A stretch of DNA of 64,000 nucleotides from Gemmatimonadota bacterium (GTDB lineage Bacteria; Gemmatimonadota; Gemmatimonadetes; JACCXV01). Positions 2,605-52,292 of the stretch are shown piece after piece. The stretch lies in the NCBI GenBank assembly GCA_036556205.1, contig DATBJW010000008.1, forward strand, positions 1,977 through 65,976, read 5' to 3'. The position numbers were made by a program, and so were the translations under genes. The stretch's first letter is position 1, and each line of letters opens with the position of its first letter. The notes under the pieces were generated by a model that was not told the DNA's origin, did no database searches, and saw only the letters and a program-made list of their open reading frames with translations.

Positions 2605-3342
2605 GTGGTCCTGAGCGCATCCGAGCTGAAGGCGTACGGGAACGTCCCCGAGCACGTGGCCATCATCATGGACGGCAACGGTCGCTGGGCGCAGGAGCGC
2701 GGCCAGCCGCGCGTGTTCGGGCACCAGGAGGGCATGAAGGCGGTCAAGCGCGCGGTGGAGGCCGCCGGCGAGGTGGGTGTGGGCGTGCTCTCGCTGTACG
2801 CGTTCTCGCAGGAGAACTGGAACCGCCCGCGCGCCGAGATCGACGCGCTCATGGAGTTGCTGACGCGCTACATCGACTCCGAGCGCCGCGAGCTCGTCGA
2901 GCGCGGCGTGCAGGTGCGGGTGATGGGCCAGCTGGAGCGCCTCTCCGCGGGGGCGCGCGCGGCACTGGCCAAGCTGACGCGCGAGACTTCGGCCGGCGAC
3001 CACCTGATCCTGAACCTCGCGATCAGCTACGGCGGCCGCTGGGAGATCGTTCGCGCCGCCCGGGCGCTGGCGCGGCAGGCGGCGGCGGGGGAGCTGGACC
3101 CCGAGGCGATCGACGAGGAGCTCTTCGCCAGCGAGCTCGCCACGGGGAGCCTGCCGGACCCCGACCTTCTCATCCGTACGAGCGGCGAGTTCCGCATCTC
3201 CAACTTCATGCTCTGGCAGATCGCGTACACGGAGATTCACGTCACGGACGTGCTCTGGCCGGACTTCGGGCAGGACGACTTCTTCGAGGCGGTGCACGAT
3301 TTCCAGCGGCGGGAGCGCCGCTTCGGGAAGGTGTCGCTATAA
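2605..3342 (+). CDS. uppS: Undecaprenyl (isoprenyl) diphosphate synthase
   Basis: cis-Prenyltransferase motifs HVAIIMDGNGRWA and RTSGEFRISNFMLWQIAYTE are present. Confidence 0.93.
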   Translation: MVLSASELKAYGNVPEHVAIIMDGNGRWAQERGQPRVFGHQEGMKAVKRAVEAAGEVGVGVLSLYAFSQENWNRPRAEIDALMELLTRYIDSERRELVERGVQVRVMGQLERLSAGARAALAKLTRETSAGDHLILNLAISYGGRWEIVRAARALARQAAAGELDPEAIDEELFASELATGSLPDPDLLIRTSGEFRISNFMLWQIAYTEIHVTDVLWPDFGQDDFFEAVHDFQRRERRFGKVSL

Positions 3343-4258: not shown

Positions 4259-5497
4259 ATGGCCACGCCCGCCAACCCAGCCCTGCACGCCGTCCCGTCC
4301 CGGAGCGACGGCGCGCCCGGACTGGAACGCCCGCGCCGGGTGGCGCTGCTGGGTTGCACGGGCTCGGTCGGAGCGGCCGCCCTGGCCGTGCTGCGCCGGC
4401 TGGGACCCGGCTTCGAGCTCTACGCCGTCTCGGCTCGCAGCAGGCTGGAGGCTCTGCTCGCCTGCAGCCGCGAGTTTCGCCCGCGACGGGTCGTGTTGTG
4501 CGAGCCGGCGGCCGCCCGAGGCTACGCCGCGGCCGGCGGCTGCGGCGACGTCTCGGTGGGGGACGAGGCCCTGGCCGACCTGGCGGCGGACCCGGCGGTG
4601 GACATCGTGGTGAACGCGCTGGTCGGCTCCGTCGGACTGCTTCCCACCCTGCGGGCGCTGGAAGCGGGCAAGCGCGTCGCCCTCGCCAACAAGGAGGCGC
4701 TCGTGATGGGCGGTGGCCTCGTCCGCCGGGCGCTCGAGCGCGGCGGGGGAGAGCTGATCCCCGTCGATAGCGAGCACAGCTCGCTGTTCCAGCTCCTCGA
4801 GGGCCGCCCCGCCTCGCAGGTGCGGCGGCTCGTGCTGACCGCTTCGGGAGGGCCCTTCCGCGGTCGCACGCGCGCGGAGCTGGCGGGCGTCACCGTGGAC
4901 GAGGCGCTGGCGCACCCCACCTGGAGCATGGGTCCCAAGGTGACCGTGGACTCGGCAACGCTCGCCAACAAGGGTCTCGAGATCATCGAGGCCCACGTCC
5001 TGTTCGACGTGCCCTACCCGGCGATCTCGGTCGTCATCCACCCGCAGTCGGTGGTGCACGGGCTCGTCGAGCTCGCCGACGGCTCGTTTCTGGCGCACCT
5101 CGGGCGTCCGACGATGGAGCTGCCGGTTCAATACGCCCTCACGTACCCCGAGCGCATGGAGCTTCCTCCCGCCCGCCTCTCGCTGCGCGAGCTCGGCAGC
5201 CTGAGCTTCGAAGCCGCCGACGAGAGCGCGTTCCCGGCCCTCGCGCTGGCGCGTGCCGCGGGCGAGGCGGGCGGCACCTGTCCGGCCGTCTTCAACGCGG
5301 CGAACGAGGCCGCCAACCTGGCGTTCCGGGAGGGGCGCATCGGGTTCGGCGAGATCCACGACGTCCTCGCGCACGCCCTCGAGCAGGTTACGCCCGAGCC
5401 GGTCCACGAAGTCGCGGACGTGCTGCGCGCCGACATGGCGGGGCGGAGTGCGGCGTGGCGGTGGGTGGAGAACGCAACCCTGGCCCGAAAGAGCTGA
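4259..5497 (+). CDS. dxr: 1-deoxy-D-xylulose 5-phosphate reductoisomerase
   Basis: ATG 4259 is in frame within track ORF 3626..5497; the upstream 211 aa overlap cdsA and are Arg/Gly-rich artefact. Motifs: LLGCTGSVG (NADPH), LANKEALV, DSEHSSLFQ, HPTWSMGPKVTVDSATLANKGLE. Confidence 0.95.
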   Translation: MATPANPALHAVPSRSDGAPGLERPRRVALLGCTGSVGAAALAVLRRLGPGFELYAVSARSRLEALLACSREFRPRRVVLCEPAAARGYAAAGGCGDVSVGDEALADLAADPAVDIVVNALVGSVGLLPTLRALEAGKRVALANKEALVMGGGLVRRALERGGGELIPVDSEHSSLFQLLEGRPASQVRRLVLTASGGPFRGRTRAELAGVTVDEALAHPTWSMGPKVTVDSATLANKGLEIIEAHVLFDVPYPAISVVIHPQSVVHGLVELADGSFLAHLGRPTMELPVQYALTYPERMELPPARLSLRELGSLSFEAADESAFPALALARAAGEAGGTCPAVFNAANEAANLAFREGRIGFGEIHDVLAHALEQVTPEPVHEVADVLRADMAGRSAAWRWVENATLARKS

Positions 5498-5501
5498 CCC
5501 C

Positions 5502-6914
5502 ATGGTCACGATCCTCGTCACGATCCTCGTCCTGGGCATCCTGGTCTTCGTGCACGAGCTCGGTCACTTCGTGGCCGCGAAGCTGGGGGGGATCCAAGTC
5601 CCGCGCTTCTCGATCGGGCTGGGGCCGCGCCTGTTCGGCTTCCGCATCGGCGAGACCGACTACTGCATCTCGGCCATCCCGTTCGGGGGCTACGTGAAGA
5701 TGGCCGGCATGGAGGCCGACGAGGCGGTGAGCGGGCTGGAGGGGGATCCGCTGCTGCAGGACGCGGGGCCGCGTGACGTCGCCCGTGTGGACTCCGGGAG
5801 CGCGGCCCAGGACGTCGCGTTCGACCCCGAGCGCGGCTTCGACCGGAAGCCTCTCTGGGTGCGCCTGGTCGTGATCCTGGCCGGCGTGTTCATGAACTTC
5901 GTGTTCGGGTTCCTGGTCTTCGTGTGGCTCTCGTGGAGCCAGGGCGAGCCGCGTCTTCCGACCATCGTCTCCGACGTCGATCCCGAGGTCGCGCTCCTGG
6001 ACGGGCGGCTGGAGGGCTGGCGGGGTCGCGCCATCCGGTCGGTGAACGGCGCTCCGGTCGACACCTGGGCCCAGCTCGACGAGCGGCTGCACGCCGCACC
6101 CGACGGGACGCCGCTGCGGATCGGGTTCGCGGACGGGGAAGAGGTGACCCTCGATCCCGCCGTGAACGGCTCGGAGCTCGCGCGCGGGGTCGCCTTCGGG
6201 CTTCCGCCCGTGATCGGCGAGGTCCAGCGCGGAAGCGTGGCGGAGGCCGCGGGCCTAGGGTCCGGAGACCGGATCCTGGCCCTCGACGGCCGGCCGGTCG
6301 TCGTCTGGGACGACATCCCGGACTACGTTCGGAGCCGCGCGGGCCAGCCGATACGCGTGCGCTTCGAGCGCGACGAGACGCCCGGCGCCCCCGGCGGTGA
6401 GCGGACGCTCGAGGTCGAGGTCGTGCCCGGCCGCCAGCAGGAGCCCGGCGCCGACAACCGCTTCGTCCAGGTCGGGTTCCTGGGTGTCGCGGCCAAGCTC
6501 GAATCGGACCCCATCAGCTTCCCGGAGGCCGTGCGCCAGGGCTGGCACCTCACGGCTCGCGCGGGCGGGCTGATCCTTCACGGGCTCGGCCAGCTCGTGA
6601 CCGGCAAGCTGTCGCTGCGAGCGCTCGGCGGCCCGGTGGTGATCGGCCAGATCACCGGCTACTACCGGCGCCAGGGCATCGACCAGCTGCTCTACTGGAT
6701 GGCGCTGTTCAGCATCAACCTGGCGATCCTGAACCTGCTCCCCATCCCCGTGCTGGACGGCGGGCACGTCCTGTTCCTGCTCATCGAGGGCATCCGGGGG
6801 CATCCGCTCTCTCCACGCTTCAAGGTGCGGCTCTCCCAGGTGGGCATGGTGCTCCTGATCCTGCTCATGGCGTGGGCCGTGACCAGCGACCTGTTGCGGC
6901 TGCTCGAACGTTAG
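5502..6914 (+). CDS. rseP: RIP site-2 metalloprotease RseP
   Basis: ATG 5502 is in frame in ORF 5253..6914. Evidence is the N-terminal TM with the HELGHF zinc motif, a central PDZ-like region, and C-terminal LAILNLLPIPVLDGGH. Confidence 0.93.
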   Translation: MVTILVTILVLGILVFVHELGHFVAAKLGGIQVPRFSIGLGPRLFGFRIGETDYCISAIPFGGYVKMAGMEADEAVSGLEGDPLLQDAGPRDVARVDSGSAAQDVAFDPERGFDRKPLWVRLVVILAGVFMNFVFGFLVFVWLSWSQGEPRLPTIVSDVDPEVALLDGRLEGWRGRAIRSVNGAPVDTWAQLDERLHAAPDGTPLRIGFADGEEVTLDPAVNGSELARGVAFGLPPVIGEVQRGSVAEAAGLGSGDRILALDGRPVVVWDDIPDYVRSRAGQPIRVRFERDETPGAPGGERTLEVEVVPGRQQEPGADNRFVQVGFLGVAAKLESDPISFPEAVRQGWHLTARAGGLILHGLGQLVTGKLSLRALGGPVVIGQITGYYRRQGIDQLLYWMALFSINLAILNLLPIPVLDGGHVLFLLIEGIRGHPLSPRFKVRLSQVGMVLLILLMAWAVTSDLLRLLER

Positions 6915-6980
6915 GTCCGCCGGCGGCGTCCCGCCGCCGAGCGGGTCGTACCGCGGCTCCGCCGCAAGCCGCCACGAGCG

Positions 6981-7697
6981 ATGCCTCACGCCGCCACGCA
7001 CGAGCCGGCCGACGCCTTCCCTCCGGAGCCTCGCGCGCCCGCGCTGGTCGTCTTCGCCAAGGCTCCTATCCCCGGACGCGTGAAGACGCGGCTCGCGCCC
7101 CGGGTCGGCGCGGCCGCGGCCGCCGAGCTCCAGAGCGCCCTGCTGCGCGACACGGCCGACATCGTGCTCGACGCGACCGGCAGGCGCCGGCCCCCGCCCG
7201 CCGTCTGGTGCGCGGCGGCCGAGCGAGGGGACGAGCCCGTGCTGCGCTCGCTTTTGCCGGCCGGCTTCGGGATGATCGCGCAGGGGCCCGGCGACCTGGG
7301 CGAGAGGATCGCCCGCGTCCTGGGCGCCGTGCACGGCGGCCGCATCCCCGTCCTGGCGCTCGGCGCCGATTGCCCGGACCTGACCACCGAGTTGCTGGAT
7401 CGAGCCCTGGAGGCGCTCGCGCGCACGGGCGCGGCGCTGGGGCCGGCCGCGGACGGAGGCTACTGGGCGATCGGGCTCGCGCGCTTCGACGCCGCTCTCT
7501 TCGCGGACATGCCCTGGTCCACGGCCGACCTGGCCCGACGCACGCGACTCCGATTCGCCGAGCGGGGGACCGCCTTCGAGGAGCTCCCCGAGCTGCGCGA
7601 CCTGGATCGCTACGACGATCTGCTCGCGTGGGCGCGCTCGCCGAACCCCGGCTTCCGGCGCACGCTCGCCTGGTGCCGGGCGCGCGGGCTCGCGTGA
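6981..7697 (+). CDS. DUF2064 / TIGR04282-type glycosyltransferase-like protein
   Basis: The pattern LVVFAKAPIPGRVKTRLAP .. GDLGERI .. LGADCPDL .. GPAADGGYWAIGL .. MPWSTADL .. LRDLDRYDDL follows the DUF2064 family layout, recognised from memory. Confidence 0.75.
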   Translation: MPHAATHEPADAFPPEPRAPALVVFAKAPIPGRVKTRLAPRVGAAAAAELQSALLRDTADIVLDATGRRRPPPAVWCAAAERGDEPVLRSLLPAGFGMIAQGPGDLGERIARVLGAVHGGRIPVLALGADCPDLTTELLDRALEALARTGAALGPAADGGYWAIGLARFDAALFADMPWSTADLARRTRLRFAERGTAFEELPELRDLDRYDDLLAWARSPNPGFRRTLAWCRARGLA

Positions 7698-8632
7698 CTT
7701 CGCCCGTCCGGAAGGCCACGATTCCCGTCGCCCACCACGCGCGTGACCCCATCGTTCCGCCCCGCCTCGCGCTGGGGGCGGCGGTGGTCGCCATCAGCTC
7801 GGCAGCGATCCTGATCCGCTGGACCGGCGCGCCGCCGCTCGTGGTCGGGGCCTACCGCCTGGCCTACGCCACGCCGCTCTTCTGGCTGGCCGCCCGCTTC
7901 GCGACAGCGCCTCTCTGGGTGGGGTGGACGCGGGCGCGCGTCGCCGCGGGCCTCGCGGCGGCCGTCCTTCTCGCGGCGCACTTCGGGCTCTGGATCGCCT
8001 CGCTCGGGCTGACGTCGGTGGCGAGCTCGGTGCTGCTCGTTTCCACGCAGCCGATCTTCGTGGCCCTCCTGGGCCGCGCGGTCCTGCGGGAGCCGGTGGC
8101 GGCCAGGGCGGCGGCCGGGATCGTGCTCGCACTTGCCGGCACGGTCGCGATCACAGGCGGCAACTTCCGCGGGCCGGAGGGAGCCTGGCGGGGCGATCTG
8201 CTGGCGCTGGGCGGGGCTCTCGCCATGGCCCTGCACACGCTTCTCGTGCGCCACCTGAGGCCGCACGTGAACCTCGTGCCCCTCATGTCTCTCGAGACGC
8301 CCGTGGCGGCCGCACTCCTCGCACTCGGCGCCGTCCTGGCGGGCGAGCCGCTCACGGGCTACGCTCCCGGCACCCATGCCCTCTTCCTGCTCCTGGCACT
8401 CGTCCCCACTGGGATCGGCCACACGCTCCTCAACTGGGCGCTGCGCTACCGGAAGGCCTACGAGGTGAACGTGGCGGTCCTGGGCGAGCCGGTGGGAGCC
8501 ACCCTCCTGGCCTTCGCGCTCCTCGGCGAGCGGCCTGCGCTGCACGTCGTTGCCGGCGGCGCGCTGGTCCTGATCGGGATCCTGCTCGCGTGGAGCTCGA
8601 GCGCCTCGCCCACCGCCGCGGGCTCGGTGTGA
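7694..8632 (+). CDS. EamA/DMT-family transporter
   Basis: GTG 7694 overlaps the upstream stop (GTGA) and is in frame in ORF 6872..8632. The product has about 10 hydrophobic segments with the two-fold repeat typical of drug/metabolite transporters. Confidence 0.8.
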   Translation: MTSPVRKATIPVAHHARDPIVPPRLALGAAVVAISSAAILIRWTGAPPLVVGAYRLAYATPLFWLAARFATAPLWVGWTRARVAAGLAAAVLLAAHFGLWIASLGLTSVASSVLLVSTQPIFVALLGRAVLREPVAARAAAGIVLALAGTVAITGGNFRGPEGAWRGDLLALGGALAMALHTLLVRHLRPHVNLVPLMSLETPVAAALLALGAVLAGEPLTGYAPGTHALFLLLALVPTGIGHTLLNWALRYRKAYEVNVAVLGEPVGATLLAFALLGERPALHVVAGGALVLIGILLAWSSSASPTAAGSV

Positions 8633-9633
8633 GCGGCCCGGCCACGGTCGAGTACCGCCGGGCGGGCCGCCCCGAGGCGCTGCACCGCCTCTCGCTGGCG
8701 GTGGCGGACGGCGAGGGAAGGCTCGTGGCGCGGGTCGGCGAGCCCGGCCTGCGAACCTACTGGCGCTCCGCGGCCAAGCCCTTCCAGGCCCTTCCGTTCG
8801 TCGCCTCCGGGGCGGCCGAGGCCTACGGACTGGGCACGCGCGAGCTGGCACTCCTCTGCTCCTCGCACAGCGGCGAAGCGCTCCATCGGGCCGCCGCGGC
8901 GCGCATCCTCTCATCGGCGGGACTCTCCGAAGCCGACCTGCTCTGCGGAGCGCACTGGCCCCTGTGGCCTCCGGGCTGGCACGACCTGGAAGGGGCGGGC
9001 GGACGACCGAGCCCGCTCGGGAACAACTGCTCGGGCAAGCACGCCGGCATGCTCGCCTACTGCCGCTTCCGCGGCTGGCCGCTGGTGGACTACCGCCGGC
9101 CCGATCATCCGCTCCAGGTGGAGATCCTCGAGGTCGTCCGGCGCGCGAGCGGGGAGCCGGCGGAGTCCATTCATGAAGCCGTGGACGGCTGCGGCGTGCC
9201 CGTCTTCCACCTCTCGCTGGCGGGCATGGCCACCGCGTACGCGCGACTCGCGGCCGGCGCCGAGCTTCCCGCCGCCTGGCAGGCGGCCTCTGCACGCCTC
9301 CTGGAGTCCGTCGCGTCGGAGCCCTTCTACCTGGCCGGAACCGACCGGCTCTGCACGCGCCTGGTCGAGGTCACCTCCGGACGCGTGGTCGCGAAGGTGG
9401 GTGCCATGGGCATCTACTGCGCCGTGCTGCGCGACCGCGGGTGGGGTCTGGCGCTCAAGGTCGAGGACGGAGCGTCCAGCGCGGCCGCGGTGAGCCTCGT
9501 GGAGGCGCTGCGCCAACTGGGCGCCCTCGAGGGCGAGGCACTCGCCGCCCTGGCGCCCTTCGGCCCCGGTCCGCTCGCCAACCACGCCGGGACCGTCGTG
9601 GGGGAGGTGGAGGCGCGCTTCGCGCTCGCTTGA
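8629..9633 (+). CDS. Asparaginase II-like (PF06089-type) protein
   Basis: GTG 8629 overlaps the EamA stop. Motifs WRSAAKPFQALP, ELALLCSSHSGEALH, NNCSGKHAGML and VDGCGVP resemble the asparaginase_II family. Confidence 0.7.
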   Translation: MSGPATVEYRRAGRPEALHRLSLAVADGEGRLVARVGEPGLRTYWRSAAKPFQALPFVASGAAEAYGLGTRELALLCSSHSGEALHRAAAARILSSAGLSEADLLCGAHWPLWPPGWHDLEGAGGRPSPLGNNCSGKHAGMLAYCRFRGWPLVDYRRPDHPLQVEILEVVRRASGEPAESIHEAVDGCGVPVFHLSLAGMATAYARLAAGAELPAAWQAASARLLESVASEPFYLAGTDRLCTRLVEVTSGRVVAKVGAMGIYCAVLRDRGWGLALKVEDGASSAAAVSLVEALRQLGALEGEALAALAPFGPGPLANHAGTVVGEVEARFALA

Positions 9634-48001: not shown

Positions 48002-48268
48002 GTGTGGCGCAAGAGCTTCCGCAACTACCTGACCGTGTTGACCCTCGGGCTGCTGCTGGGTAGCTTCCTCGGAGAGGTCCTGGCCCGCTATCTGCCCGAG
48101 GGCGTGGCGAAGTCCTTCTTCACGAACTCGGTCACCGGCCAGTTCGGGCCCGTGTCGCTGGACCTCATCGCGATCGGGATCACGCTGGGACCCCTGTCGA
48201 TTGCCGTGAACATCATGTCGGTGGTCGGGGTCGTCCTGGCGGCGTACCTGTTCCGATCCTTCTTCTGA
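48002..48268 (+). CDS. Small membrane protein (DUF4321-like)
   Basis: 88-aa product with two hydrophobic helices and high GC3. The family recollection is tentative. Confidence 0.5.
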   Translation: MWRKSFRNYLTVLTLGLLLGSFLGEVLARYLPEGVAKSFFTNSVTGQFGPVSLDLIAIGITLGPLSIAVNIMSVVGVVLAAYLFRSFF

Positions 48269-48299
48269 GCGCCCGGCGGGCGCGCACAAGGGAGCGACC

Positions 48300-48545
48300 A
48301 TGTTCGGCGGCATCGGCATGCAGGAAATCCTGGTCATCCTGCTCATCTTCTTGCTGATCTTCGGGGCGAAGCGGCTGCCCGAGCTGGGGCAGGCGCTCGG
48401 GAAGGGAATCCGCGAGTTCAAGCGGTCGGTCTCCGAGATCGAGGACAACCTGAAGGACGAACGGCCCCGGCCGCGGCTCGAGAGCCGCGACGAGCCTCGC
48501 GCCCTGGACGCCAAAGTCGACGTCAAGGAGGAGAGCAAGGCCTGA
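48300..48545 (+). CDS. tatA: Twin-arginine translocase subunit TatA/E
   Basis: The N-terminal TM plus hinge is ILVILLIFLLIFGAKRLPELGQALGKGIREFKRS. Confidence 0.92.
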   Translation: MFGGIGMQEILVILLIFLLIFGAKRLPELGQALGKGIREFKRSVSEIEDNLKDERPRPRLESRDEPRALDAKVDVKEESKA

Positions 48546-48573
48546 TCCCGCCCTCGGACCGGCGGATGTGTCG

Positions 48574-48608
48574 CGAGACCCCGGAGAATCCGGGGTCTCG
48601 TCGTTTTT
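48574..48608 (+). terminator. Rho-independent terminator after tatA
   Basis: A perfect 11-bp stem forms between cgagaccccgg (48574-48584) and ccggggtctcg (48590-48600) with a 5-nt loop. It is followed by tcgTTTTT (T-run 48604-48608). Confidence 0.85.
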
Positions 48609-48734
48609 GAGGCTCCGCGGACGGTTGGTTCGGAAGTCCCGCCGGCGAACGTTTTCGCACCCCCGCGTGTTGTTGGGAGGAAGGGAAGGAGAAGGGCCAG
48701 GGAGGTGCTGCCCAGCTCAAGCGGAGGGATTGCG

Positions 48735-48839
48735 GTGAACACTCGAGCGACGTTCATTCTGGCGGCCGAGATCGTCGTCACACTGGCGCTCACGGTCGGC
48801 TGCGTGCTCCTGACCGTGGCCGTCCCGACGAGCCTCTGA
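48735..48839 (+). CDS. Candidate 34-aa single-TM micropeptide upstream of the ECF sigma gene
   Basis: Not in the ORF track because it is under 60 aa. GGAGGG lies 6 nt upstream of GTG 48735. The translation is (M)NTRATFILAAEIVVTLALTVGCVLLTVAVPTSL. GC3 is 30 of 34 codons, which looks like coding. An in-frame GTG at 48705 would give 44 aa. Confidence 0.45.
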   Translation: MNTRATFILAAEIVVTLALTVGCVLLTVAVPTSL

Positions 48840-48903
48840 CCCCGGCGGCGCCCGGGCGGGGAAGCGCCGATGGCCTGCCCGCCGTACGCCCGCCGCAGAC
48901 GCG

Positions 48904-49512
48904 ATGCCCGAACCCACGAACAGGCTCCTCAGCCGGCTCACGGTGAACCTGGCGCTCGACGTCCGTCGAGGCCGGAAGGGCGCCTTCGAGCGTCTCGTCC
49001 GGGACCACCAGGACGCGTTGTTCGGCTACGCACTGGGCCTGGTCCGGGATCCGGCCGACGCGCAGGACGTGACGCAGGACGCCTTCCTGCGCGCCCACCG
49101 CGCGCTCACGGCGAGCTACGACGAGGAACGCTGTCGCAGCCTGGAGCTGCGGCCGTGGCTCTTCCGCATCACCCGCAACCTGGCCCTGAACCGCTTGCGC
49201 GCGCGGCGGGTTGCGCGCGAGGCTCCGCTTCCCGAAGCGGACGGCTATCACGAAGCGGCGCTGCGGTTGCCCTCCGCCGCCGAGGGGATGCTGGTCGGGC
49301 ACGAGCGACGGCAGCGGCTGGAGCAGGCCCTGGGACGCCTGGACCGGGAGGCCCGGGAGATCGTGCAACTCCGCTTCGTCCAGAGCCTCTCCTACGCCGA
49401 GATCGCGGCCGTGGCGGGCGGCAGCGAAGCCGCCGCCCGCGGCAAGGTGTTCCGTGCGCTGGCGCGGTTGCGCGCGCATCTCACACAAGAGGAAGCCTGT
49501 CATGCGATGTGA
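48904..49512 (+). CDS. ECF-type RNA polymerase sigma-70 family factor
   Basis: Region 2 is DAQDVTQDAFLRAHRAL..LRPWLFRITRNLALNRLR. Region 4 is REIVQLRFVQSLSYAEIAAVAGGSEAAARGKVFRALARLR. Confidence 0.9.
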   Translation: MPEPTNRLLSRLTVNLALDVRRGRKGAFERLVRDHQDALFGYALGLVRDPADAQDVTQDAFLRAHRALTASYDEERCRSLELRPWLFRITRNLALNRLRARRVAREAPLPEADGYHEAALRLPSAAEGMLVGHERRQRLEQALGRLDREAREIVQLRFVQSLSYAEIAAVAGGSEAAARGKVFRALARLRAHLTQEEACHAM

Positions 49513-50398
49513 AGACGTGATCGAGCGGCTCGACGCCTTTCGCACGCGCGAGCTGTCGCGGCGCGAGCTGCGCGGGATGGAGACCCATCTGGCGGATTGC
49601 GCGCCGTGTGCGGACGAGCTCACGGAGCTCGAGGCGCTGGCGGCCGACTGCACGGCGCTGAGAATGCGCTGCCCCGACGAGGTGGCGGCCCGCCTGCTGG
49701 CCGAGACCGGGGACCGCTACGGGCCCGTGGAGACGGATCTGGGCCGCGTGTGGGTGGCGTTCAGCGACCGCGGCATCACGCTCGTCCATCTGGGCGTGAG
49801 AACGCCGGCTGCCTTCGAGGAGGCCTGCCGGAGCCGGCTGGGCCGCCCGGCCCGCCCGGCCGAGGTGCCCGAGCGCTTCGCCGCGGCGATCCGGACGGCG
49901 GCCGCGGGTGCCGCGCCGCGCGAGGTGCCGGTGGACCTCTCCGCGCTCTCCCCCTTCGAACGCGACGTGCTGACCAGCCTGCGGCGGATTCCCCGCGGCG
50001 AGGTGCGGCCCTACGCCTGGCTGGCGCGCGAGGTGGGACGTCCACGGGCGGTGCGCGCGGTCGGCAACGCGTTGGCCAAGAACCCGGTGCCGCTGATCCT
50101 GCCCTGCCACCGGGTCGTCCCCACGACCGGGGGGGTGGGCGGCTATCGATTCGGGAGCGCGCTCAAGCGCGCGGTGCTGGAGCGGGAGGGCGTGCCGCTG
50201 GACGATCTCTCACGCTTCGGCCGCGAGGGGGTGCGTTGCCTGGGCTGCGCGAGCACGCACGTGTATTGCCTGCCGAGCTGCCGCGGCATCCGCCGGGCGC
50301 GGCCCGAGAACCGCGTACCGTTCTCGAGCGAGCAAGCGGCGGCGCGCGCCGGCTACCGACCCTGCCGGCTCTGCCGGCCGGCGGCCAGCGCCGCCTGA
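49502..50398 (+). CDS. Soluble anti-sigma (zf-HC2, HxxxCxxC) domain fused to O6-alkylguanine-DNA alkyltransferase (PCHR) and a C-terminal Ada-type Cys4 zinc domain
   Basis: ATG 49502 is in frame in ORF 49211..50398 and overlaps the sigma gene by 11 nt. The N-terminus is MRCEDVIERLDAFRTRELS..METHLADCAPC. The MGMT N-domain-like stretch is GPVETDLGRVWVAFSDRGITLVHLG. The DNA-binding/active-site stretch is SPFERDVLTSLRRIPRGEV..YAWLA..AVRAVGNALAKNPVPLILPCHRVV. The C-terminus is YCLPSCRG..ENRVPF..AGYRPCRLCRP. No hydrophobic TM segment is present. Confidence 0.8.
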   Translation: MRCEDVIERLDAFRTRELSRRELRGMETHLADCAPCADELTELEALAADCTALRMRCPDEVAARLLAETGDRYGPVETDLGRVWVAFSDRGITLVHLGVRTPAAFEEACRSRLGRPARPAEVPERFAAAIRTAAAGAAPREVPVDLSALSPFERDVLTSLRRIPRGEVRPYAWLAREVGRPRAVRAVGNALAKNPVPLILPCHRVVPTTGGVGGYRFGSALKRAVLEREGVPLDDLSRFGREGVRCLGCASTHVYCLPSCRGIRRARPENRVPFSSEQAAARAGYRPCRLCRPAASAA

Positions 50399-50414
50399 GC
50401 GGGAGGGAGGTTCC

Positions 50415-52292
50415 TCAAAACAGCGGGGGTGACTTTGCGTCCGACGCTGCGCTGTCCCCCTCGGCCACCTCGAAGAAGCGGGCGCGCTGGTCCTCGATCT
50501 TGGCCTCGCTCTTGAGGGCCTTGAACCAGGCGTCCACCGTCTGCTGGATCTTGCGCTGGAGCAGTTGCTGGCGGAACCCCTCCTTCTGCTGGGCGAGGGC
50601 GTTCAGGTCGGCCGCTGTGCGCTCGGTCACGCCCAGATAGTAGATCCCGTCTGCCAGCTCGATGGGTCCCGCGATCTGGCCGGGTTGCAGGCCGAAAGCG
50701 GTCCCGATGAAGGCGTTCCCGCCGCCGATCCGCGGAAGCTGCGCGGAGCGTGCGAACGGACCGGCCGACTTGACCTCGAGGCCGAGCTCGCTGGCCGCTC
50801 CGTCGAGACCGCGCTCGCGCACCAGGTCCGTGGCGCGCGCCTCGAGCGCCCTGGCGCGGGCCAGCTTCTTCTCGAACACGAGCTGCCGCCGGATCTGATC
50901 CTGCACCTGCTCGAAGGGGGCGTAGCCGGCCGGCAGGCGCTCGTCGACCTTCACGACGTAGACGGCGTTCCCCGAGCGCAGGGGATCGCTGATCGAGCCG
51001 ACGGGACTGTCGAACACCCACTCCGCCACCTCGGGGACGCGGCCGAGACCGGGCACGAAGGCGGACTGCTCGAAGGGGGGCGTGCGCTCGACGGTGCGAC
51101 CGTGGTCGGCCGCCACCTGCTCGAAGCTGTCGGGCTTGGCGAGGGCCAGCTGCTGGAGCGCGGCCGCACTGTCCTCGAGCGCCGCGAACGTCTCCTCAGA
51201 GGGCTCGATGCGGCGCAGGATGTGCTGAACGCGCACACGCTCGGCGCCGGGCAACCCGCCCTCGTCCTTCTGGCGCTCGCCGGCCTTCAGGATGTGCCAG
51301 CCGAAGGGGGTCAGGAAGGCCCGGGAGATCGAATCCTTCGGCGTGGCGAAGGCCACCTGCTCGAACTCGGGCACCATCTGACCGCGATTGAAGAAGCCCA
51401 GGTCGCCGCCCCGCCCGGCGCTGCCCGGATCCTGCGAGGCTTCGCGCGCCAGCTCGGCGAAGTCCTCGCCGGCCACGATCCGGGCACGCAGCGAGTCGAT
51501 CTCGGCCTTCACGCGCGCCGTGTCGGCGGCCGTCGTACCGGCGGTCCAGCGGATCGCGCTGATCCGCGCGGCGGCCTTGCGCGCGAACTGGGCGTCCTTC
51601 TTACTGTCGTACGCCGCGTGCAACTCCTGGTCCGTGACGGCCACGGCGCTGTCGGGCACCAGCTTCGCCGGGTCGAGGTACAGATACCGGACGCGTGCCT
51701 GCTCCTGCGCCGCGCGGTAGGCGTCCTCGAGCTCGCGGTCGCTGACCGCGACTCCGGCCACGACCTGCGCCTGGAGCTTGCGCAGCGGGAGCTCCTGCCG
51801 GACGTTGGCCTCGTAGGCGGTGAGCGTGGGTCCGAACTGAGGATCGGCGAGCGTACGCTGCCACTTGGCCGGGTCGAACTTGCCGTCCGTCTGGAGCGCC
51901 GGCGAATTCGCGAGCTCGGCGGGCGGCGTGGTCCGCACGTACTGCGCGACCTCGTCGTCGTCGACGTGAATGCCGCGCCGCTTCGTCTCGTCCTGGAGGA
52001 GCGTCAAGTTGACGGCGTTGTCCCAGGCCATCTGCTGGGCCTGGCGGACCTGCTCGTCGCCCACGCTTCCGTCGGGGTCCTGCGCCCGCAGCCGGTTGAG
52101 CGCGCCCTCGTACTGCCGCTCGTACTCCTGGAGCGGGATGTCGCGGCCGTTGACTGTGCCGACGACGGTCGACGAGCGGCCGTTCCGCCGACCGGTCAGG
52201 TCCATGGCCCAGTCGAAGACCATGAGCGCCACGAAGGCCACCGCCACCACGATCATGATGATCTTCGTGCTCGCCCGCAGCTGTCGCATCAT
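50415..52292 (-). CDS. ppiD: Periplasmic chaperone / peptidyl-prolyl isomerase PpiD-like
   Basis: An N-terminal TM anchor (IIMIVVAVAFVALMVF) is followed by a SurA-N-like region and a parvulin domain (GGDLGFFNRGQMVPEFEQVAF..GWHILK). Confidence 0.8.
   Translation of the reverse strand: MMRQLRASTKIIMIVVAVAFVALMVFDWAMDLTGRRNGRSSTVVGTVNGRDIPLQEYERQYEGALNRLRAQDPDGSVGDEQVRQAQQMAWDNAVNLTLLQDETKRRGIHVDDDEVAQYVRTTPPAELANSPALQTDGKFDPAKWQRTLADPQFGPTLTAYEANVRQELPLRKLQAQVVAGVAVSDRELEDAYRAAQEQARVRYLYLDPAKLVPDSAVAVTDQELHAAYDSKKDAQFARKAAARISAIRWTAGTTAADTARVKAEIDSLRARIVAGEDFAELAREASQDPGSAGRGGDLGFFNRGQMVPEFEQVAFATPKDSISRAFLTPFGWHILKAGERQKDEGGLPGAERVRVQHILRRIEPSEETFAALEDSAAALQQLALAKPDSFEQVAADHGRTVERTPPFEQSAFVPGLGRVPEVAEWVFDSPVGSISDPLRSGNAVYVVKVDERLPAGYAPFEQVQDQIRRQLVFEKKLARARALEARATDLVRERGLDGAASELGLEVKSAGPFARSAQLPRIGGGNAFIGTAFGLQPGQIAGPIELADGIYYLGVTERTAADLNALAQQKEGFRQQLLQRKIQQTVDAWFKALKSEAKIEDQRARFFEVAEGDSAASDAKSPPLF

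Follow-up and report, generated by a model that had tools for sequence, protein, structure and literature searches.

A sigma factor gene overlapping a three-part fusion gene

We analyzed a stretch of 64,000 nucleotides (the window) from a Gemmatimonadota bacterium of the GTDB lineage JACCXV01, which corresponds to positions 1,977 to 65,976 of the forward strand of contig DATBJW010000008.1 (GenBank assembly GCA_036556205.1). Our subject is a pair of genes at positions 48904 to 50398 of the window. One encodes an extracytoplasmic function (ECF) sigma factor. The other encodes a fusion of a putative anti-sigma domain (ASD), an O6-alkylguanine-DNA alkyltransferase of the MGMT type, and a zinc module resembling one found in Escherichia coli Ada. 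An earlier note on this DNA had proposed that the two genes form an alkylation-linked sigma/anti-sigma circuit.

The sigma factor gene lies at 48904 to 49512 on the plus strand and encodes 202 amino acids. It was recognized by NCBIfam (TIGR02937) and by Pfam, which found both region 2 (Sigma70_r2, 53.9 bits) and region 4 (r4_2, 42.4 bits) above their curated cut-offs. The reading frame, bounded by stop codons, holds only one start codon, the ATG. The fusion gene follows on the same strand at 49502 to 50398, encodes 298 amino acids, and overlaps the sigma factor gene by 11 nt, just as the earlier note had described. That note had also allowed for a start codon past residue 55 or so of the fusion. 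This is unlikely, because residues 1 to 55 are conserved at the protein level in 117 to 118 homologues, with C3, D11, R14, T15, E17, and C36 conserved in at least 90% and with H29 and C33 invariant. Therefore, the annotated start appears to be sound. Rfam and tRNA scans of the 64-kb window returned no matches.

Residues 1 to 70 of the fusion (49502 to 49711, plus strand) appear to make up a class-I-like ASD of the zinc-binding anti-sigma (ZAS) type with four helices. The Pfam zf-HC2 family (PF13490) matched residues 3 to 37 with 27.8 bits (cut-off, 22.2), and the ligands that the earlier note had picked out are all present as C3 and H29-x3-C33-x2-C36 (C-x25-H-x3-C-x2-C). Its zf-HC2 assignment is thus upheld. 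In an AlphaFold2 model, helices span residues 3 to 14, 20 to 32, 34 to 52, and 59 to 69 with a predicted local distance difference test (pLDDT) score of 77 to 97, and the fourth helix leads directly into the first strand of the MGMT N-lobe. Foldseek matched this region to RskA/SigK, RslA/SigL, and MucA/AlgU structures (including 4nqw_B, 3hug, and 8z6g) with probabilities of 0.84 to 0.92. When residues 1 to 74 were compared with PDB sequences, the top matches were the anti-sigma factors DdvA and RslA. We infer that residues 1 to 70 bind the sigma factor.

The next part, residues 71 to 231 (49712 to 50194, plus strand), consists of the N-lobe and C-lobe of an O6-alkylguanine-DNA alkyltransferase. 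The DNA_binding_1/MGMT family (PF01035) matched residues 151 to 231 with 98.9 bits, above its curated cut-off. PF02870 had no match in the fusion protein at an E value of ≤1 in Pfam. However, the NCBIfam Ada equivalog model (NF011964) aligned residues 72 to 229 with Ada positions 190 to 348, and therefore the N-lobe is present. Foldseek superposed the region on E. coli Ada-C (1sfe) with a template modeling (TM) score of 0.85 and a root mean square deviation (rmsd) of 2.0 Å over 167 columns. The acceptor Cys202 (codon at 50105 to 50107) sits in an intact P201-C202-H203-R204 motif. Profile, alignment, motif, and fold all agree with the complete Ogt/MGMT and intact acceptor cysteine reported in the earlier note. 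The fusion is predicted to be a suicide repair protein that transfers alkyl groups from DNA to itself.

A truncated N-Ada-type Cys4 zinc module completes the fusion (residues 246 to 293; 50237 to 50380, plus strand). Ada_Zn_binding (PF02805) matched it with 40.1 bits (cut-off, 23) over profile positions 18 to 64 of 65, and its cysteines form the pattern C256-x3-C260...C288-x2-C291. A phmmer search of the PDB placed residues 246 to 293 on N-Ada residues 29 to 75, with C256, C260, C288, and C291 at the positions of Ada C38, C42, C69, and C72. C38 is the methyl acceptor of Ada. Foldseek aligned the module with the methylated N-Ada/DNA complex (1u8b_A) over 51 columns at an rmsd of 1.7 Å. Transfer of methyl groups from DNA methylphosphotriesters to the zinc module is predicted from these matches. 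The earlier note had called this an Ada N-terminal Cys4 module, and the four cysteines do align with the Ada ligands. However, the module is shorter than that description implied: it has no counterpart of Ada residues 1 to 28 (the N-terminal strand and helix) and so falls short of the complete N-Ada domain (about Ada residues 1 to 92). A weak NCBIfam match to a "sunset domain" covers residues 250 to 287, and a literature search for that name returned nothing.

The AlphaFold2 model of the whole fusion, built on 118 homologues, is confident, with a pLDDT of 93.2 and a predicted TM score of 0.76. Its folds run in the order of four N-terminal helices, a two-lobe alkyltransferase, and a small zinc module. 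This agrees with the profile searches, in which PF13490, PF01035, and PF02805 all scored above their cut-offs, and PF02870 alone of the four families named in the earlier note had no match. Past the zinc module, the fusion ends in the tail AASAA (residues 294 to 298; 50381 to 50395). Beyond the CxxCRP motif, its homologues likewise have short nonpolar tails, of which 24 out of 75 terminate in -AA. The tail may be a degron of the ClpXP or Tsp type, or it may be mere alanine richness in high-GC DNA.

Conservation, promoter, and neighboring genes

More than 120 full-length homologues, 44 to 93% identical to the fusion, have the same architecture, which is therefore conserved far beyond chance. 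Where sources name these homologues, they are labeled as plain methyltransferases. In a 50% clustering, 37,203 clusters were MGMT-like at an E value of ≤1e-3, but only about 150 reached ≤1e-30. Among the approximately 150 matches listed at that stricter threshold, about 100 continue through the Ada module, and in about 15 the alignment begins at residue 1.

To describe the genes around the fusion, we used a set of 80 loci (designated by L numbers) from a scan of species-representative genomes. They come from at least seven phyla: Gemmatimonadota, Latescibacterota, Acidobacteriota, Zixibacteria, Chloroflexota, Dormibacterota, and Actinomycetota. The carriers include cultured Thermogemmatispora (Chloroflexota) and Nonomuraea (Actinomycetota). 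At every locus but one (79/80), a gene for an ECF sigma factor is directly upstream of the fusion gene on the same strand; the remaining locus is truncated at a contig end. In many of the 75 pairs compared, the stop and start codons overlap, by 4 nt in 26, 11 nt in 18, 20 nt in 6, and 8 nt in 5. Judged from these overlaps, most sigma-fusion pairs are translationally coupled. Because the flanking genes differ from lineage to lineage, the pair evidently moves as a unit. When a family hidden Markov model was applied to held-out sequences, linked sigma factors scored 160 to 221 bits, whereas unlinked ECF sigma factors from the same loci scored 81 to 141 bits. By this measure, the linked sigma factors are a coherent subfamily.

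The two predicted repair centers are conserved throughout the family. The PCHR motif is present at all 80 loci and the C-terminal Cx3C...Cx2C pattern at 79, the sole exception being a protein that ends at a contig edge. Among 118 sequences, H29, C33, C202, H203, R204, C256, C260, C288, and C291 are invariant. The ZAS HxxxCxxC motif is intact in the window clade. However, it is degenerate (for example, HLERCADLRE or QLAASADSPE) in sponge-associated sister loci from Gemmatimonadota and Latescibacterota (L004 to L008, L010, L014 to L018, and L023), and the ligands are absent from all members in Chloroflexota and Actinomycetota. The N-terminal extension of those members aligns with residues 44 to 72 or so of the window protein, which cover the last part of helix 3, an Ala-Pro turn, and helix 4. 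Therefore, the ASD zinc site cannot be the conserved sensor of the family, because its ligands have been lost while the MGMT cysteine and the Cys4 set are universal. On the aligned sequences, the universal core is [helix 3b-helix 4]-MGMT-AdaZn. The earlier note had counted three Cys/zinc centers in one chain. All three occur in the window clade, but the first is not a general property. In the Nonomuraea glycinis fusion (L076, 5764 to 6735), the N-terminal extension carries a repetitive insertion of the ATGQGPTNP type.

An unbiased count of bipartite k-mers in the regions 5′ of the sigma factor genes yielded an ECF-type motif, (CGAAC|GCAAC)-N16-GTGTT. It occurred 70 times in 902 kb of loci, compared with once in a reversed-sequence control, and nearly every sigma-fusion pair has it at its 5′ side. 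Sixty-two copies lie directly 5′ of the sigma factor gene, and five more lie 5′ of an extended operon (L003, L047, L031, L043, and L060). The −35 element varies by clade, with CGAAC in the ZAS clade and (T)GCAAC in the clade with short N termini. In the window, this ECF-type promoter is at 48646 to 48671 on the plus strand, with the −35 element CGAAC at 48646 to 48650, a 16-nt spacer, and the −10 element GTGTT at 48667 to 48671. An alignment of four relatives showed both elements to be invariant and the spacer to be variable. No sigma-70-like promoter was found in 48300 to 50700.

Between the promoter and the sigma factor gene is a small open reading frame (ORF) at 48735 to 48839 on the plus strand. 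It has a GTG start, a Shine-Dalgarno sequence (GGAGGG) at 48722 to 48727, and a 34-amino-acid product with one predicted transmembrane helix, VNTRATFILAAEIVVTLALTVGCVLLTVAVPTSL. No Pfam family matched it. It is conserved as a protein in L081 (9235 to 9339), L085 (about 3134 to 3286), and L082 (about 9230 to 9340), where the Shine-Dalgarno sequence is invariant and the variation is of the wobble type, and the consensus is ..RAT..L.AEI...L.LTVGCVLLTV.VPT... The ORF persists in relatives down to 62% fusion identity that have different flanking genes, and it has been called as a gene in related contigs. Therefore, the operon of the window subclade consists of small peptide, sigma factor, and fusion genes. 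Two Chloroflexota loci (L031, 4904 to 5236; L060, 1910 to 2152) have a different small ORF between the motif and the sigma factor gene, the product of which carries a C-terminal transmembrane segment (..ESHWRW..P..LPGL..). Small membrane peptides may occupy this position recurrently. In L043, the intervening gene (4417 to 5391) encodes a luciferase-like monooxygenase.

Upstream of the module are genes for a DUF4321 protein and TatA (48002 to 48545), which end in a strong intrinsic terminator at 48573 to 48610 on the plus strand, with a 13-bp stem followed by a T-tract. From its sequence, this tatA terminator insulates the module from read-through. L081 and L085 share this synteny of the DUF4321/TatA genes; L082 does not. 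The L082 locus also carries a minus-strand cluster (6520 to 8256), divergent from the module, with genes for a separate ECF sigma factor, a 78-amino-acid stand-alone zf-HC2 protein, and a SAM-methyltransferase.

AlkA-like genes (AlkA_N plus HhH-GPD) accompany the pair in some lineages. In L047 and L055 they directly adjoin the fusion gene, and in L026, L033, and L002 they are found downstream of it. In L039, an AlkA-like HhH-GPD gene on the opposite strand (minus, 4348 to 3365) has its own GCAAC-N16-GTGTT copy (4462), 15 to 88 nt 5′ of its candidate starts. No other gene outside the operon, in the DNA examined, was a clear regulon member. In L002, a second MGMT plus Ada_Zn protein that lacks the N-terminal extension (6920 to 7681) is encoded directly after the fusion gene and is followed by the AlkA-like gene (7977 to 8534). 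Therefore, the MGMT-AdaZn two-domain unit also exists without the putative sigma-binding part. Other operon partners vary by lineage, and an Exo_endo_phos protein, a putative cyclase, or transporters may be encoded downstream of the fusion gene. The Exo_endo_phos and putative cyclase loci are L061, L063, and L067 (about 6820 to 7820) and L036, L038, L048, and L075 (about 6880 to 7540).

A candidate alkylation-responsive circuit and its alternatives

We propose that the module is a self-contained, autoregulated response to alkylation damage, in which a suicide-repair anti-sigma factor releases its ECF sigma factor once it has been alkylated. We hold this to be slightly better than an even bet. 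The dedicated ECF promoter would drive the genes for the small membrane peptide, the sigma factor, and the translationally coupled soluble anti-sigma factor, and the four-helix ASD (residues 1 to 70) would hold the sigma factor. On alkylation of the DNA, the fusion would irreversibly move alkyl groups to Cys202 and/or the zinc-bound Cys256, and transfer to one or both of these residues would presumably be the sigma-releasing signal. The alkylated fusion would shift its conformation, or it would be destabilized and degraded. The ASD would then let go, and the freed sigma factor would transcribe its own operon, providing fresh alkyltransferase, and in some lineages the genes for AlkA-type glycosylases. 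Once the lesions were gone, newly made unalkylated fusion would re-sequester the sigma factor, so the circuit would reset itself.

Alkylated alkyltransferases (AGTs) are known to undergo destabilization and degradation. In SsOGT, alkylation (methylation) of the active-site cysteine drops the melting temperature from 80 to 60°C and disturbs the interface between the N- and C-domains, and alkylated human AGT (hAGT) is highly unstable (PMC4605297). By analogy, this destabilization offers a plausible physical route to sigma factor release. Methylation of the zinc-bound cysteine, instead of C202, could also be the main signal, as an analogy with Ada would have it.

The domain identities, the intact catalytic and ligand residues, and the linkage to AlkA are observed features of the module, as are the pairing, the coupling, and the promoter. 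The circuit proposed in the earlier note gains support from the last three of these (the pairing holds at 79/79 informative loci) and from the AlkA linkage in some lineages. The sequence-level statements of the note all hold, but its count of three Cys/zinc centers is clade specific.

Several observations weigh against our proposal. For the ASD, the E values of the Foldseek matches to anti-sigma structures are weak (0.4 to 1.7). Across the 64-kb window, the motif occurs only at the promoter, also when one mismatch is tolerated. In the window and in L081, L082, L001, L003, and L027, strict and relaxed scans found only the promoter of each module's own operon, plus two probable chance matches. 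Therefore, in the window lineage the motif scans support autoregulation alone and no wider regulon. The N-terminal extension in Chloroflexota and Actinomycetota is only 30 to 45 amino acids long and is not recognizable as an ASD. Also, the published sigma factor classification, as summarized in a 2022 review, lists group ECF122 among groups "without cognate anti-sigma factors" (PMC8999054).

The short extensions and the ECF122 listing would both fit a fusion that is not an anti-sigma factor at all. It would instead be a co-transcribed repair enzyme and the main target of the sigma factor, its N-terminal helices would have another role, such as dimerization or DNA contacts, and some other control would act on the sigma factor, for example the small membrane peptide or transcription alone. 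The transmembrane ORF 5′ of the sigma factor gene in the window clade, and the different one in L031 and L060, could be such peptides, but they are restricted to clades whereas the fusion partner is universal. The zf-HC2 score is above the Pfam cut-off, and the nearest PDB sequence and fold matches of residues 1 to 74 are all anti-sigma factors (DdvA, RslA, RskA, and MucA), which argues for an ASD. The fusion gene is also strictly at position +1 with overlapping stop and start codons, the standard arrangement for sigma and anti-sigma factor genes. We consider this alternative unlikely. We give a similarly low weight to an anti-sigma factor that is released without any alkyl transfer, either when its MGMT and Ada parts engage DNA or lesions or through constitutive proteolysis via its nonpolar C-terminal tail. 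The module would then be a homeostat for alkyltransferase abundance, not a chemical switch. MGMT and N-Ada both retain intact DNA-binding elements, and the short nonpolar tails described above are what such proteolysis would call for, although their composition may merely mirror the alanine richness of high-GC genomes. Both acceptor cysteines are strictly invariant over at least seven phyla, which argues that the chemistry matters, but repair alone could explain this too.

Less probable still, in our estimation, is an RsrA-like anti-sigma factor in which the ZAS zinc-thiolate center senses oxidants or thiol-reactive electrophiles, with MGMT and Ada as repair cargo outside the signaling path. 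The window protein has the full C-x25-H-x3-C-x2-C set, at least 90% conserved in its 118 closest homologues, and it matches the RsrA model TIGR03988 of NCBIfam. However, that match is weak (20 bits, against an equivalog cut-off of 62.5), and in other clades the ligands are degenerate or absent while the pairing, the promoter, the MGMT cysteine, and the Cys4 set persist. Because family members do not all keep the ligands, we rejected a redox-only ZAS as the general mechanism.

Comparison with known systems

The earlier note had allowed that the architecture could be listed in existing ECF resources, and the pairing is indeed listed. According to the 2022 review, group ECF122 of the 2021 ECF re-classification has a conserved 6-O-methylguanine DNA methyltransferase neighbor as a possible regulator, with mechanism unknown, and its example is an actinobacterial protein from Cellulomonas (PMC8999054). 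Therefore, on that description, pairing of an ECF sigma factor with MGMT had been catalogued already. We compared the window sigma factor with ECF122 through this published description. Both have an alkyltransferase gene beside the sigma factor gene, and the actinobacterial loci L068, L069, and L076 fit the description of ECF122 and share the promoter motif, including the −10 element GTGTT, with our other loci. Unlike ECF122 as described there, the window sigma factor has a partner in which a ZAS anti-sigma domain is explicit. Neither ECF122 nor methyltransferase is mentioned in PMC7826278 (main text) or the preprint. Beyond the mention of ECF122, our literature search found no paper on the partner ASD, the promoter, the AlkA link, or an experiment tying an ECF or anti-sigma factor to alkyltransferases.

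We think there is a little less than an even chance that this arrangement is a widespread alternative to Ada, with one protein as both suicide repair enzyme and anti-sigma factor. Each irreversible alkyl transfer, whether to the MGMT cysteine or to the zinc thiolate of the Ada-type module, would consume one anti-sigma factor and free one sigma factor, transcription would be titrated to the lesion load, and the ZAS form would be the "missing" anti-sigma factor of ECF122-like groups. If alkylation does free the sigma factor, it would be a new class of ECF input, the covalent consumption of an anti-sigma factor by DNA repair, and it would explain an ECF group that is now listed with its mechanism unknown and with no anti-sigma factor. 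To our knowledge, the Ada response is known only in the AraC-activator format, and several of the at least seven carrier phyla have no described adaptive response. The circuit is testable, because its promoter, sigma factor, candidate anti-sigma factor, and candidate AlkA target are all defined and there are cultured carriers in Thermogemmatispora and Nonomuraea. Its parts could also serve as an orthogonal biosensor for alkylation damage.

The Ada response is the classic example of how irreversible self-methylation turns a protein into a regulator. Like E. coli Ada (1sfe, 1adn, and 1u8b), the fusion has counterparts of both self-methylating modules, appears to be autoregulated, and is linked to AlkA. 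However, its modules are in the reverse order (MGMT and then the zinc module), and its zinc module lacks Ada residues 1 to 28. It also has no AraC-type helix-turn-helix (HTH), as the earlier note had observed; neither HTH_18 nor any other HTH family matched it in Pfam. The Ada equivalog model (NF011964) scored 110.8 bits against a cut-off of 345, with only the C-terminal half aligned. Therefore, with this score and no HTH, the fusion is not Ada. Whereas Ada binds promoters directly, the output of the fusion would run through sequestration of a dedicated ECF sigma factor.

Bacillus subtilis AdaA/AdaB and mycobacterial AdaA-AlkA/Ogt are split adaptive-response systems with an AraC-type HTH activator. 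They resemble the module in combining an Ada zinc module and MGMT in variable arrangements with AlkA, but they involve no ECF sigma factor, and the module has no AraC-type HTH activator.

The pairs RsrA-SigR, RslA-SigL, RskA-SigK, and ChrR-SigE are alike in other respects. As in these ZAS pairs, the window protein has an HxxxCxxC ASD with a four-helix topology, and its gene is immediately downstream of, and overlaps, that of an apparently autoregulated ECF sigma factor. The fusion is predicted to be soluble, as RsrA and ChrR are. Unlike them, it has zinc ligands that are dispensable in parts of its family, and its C-terminal sensor would be a suicide DNA-repair pair, whereas theirs is a redox-only peptide, a cupin, or a transmembrane domain. 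What would be new here is a putative ZAS-type sigma/anti-sigma pair whose sensor module has no precedent or, equivalently, an Ada-type response rewired through sigma factor sequestration.

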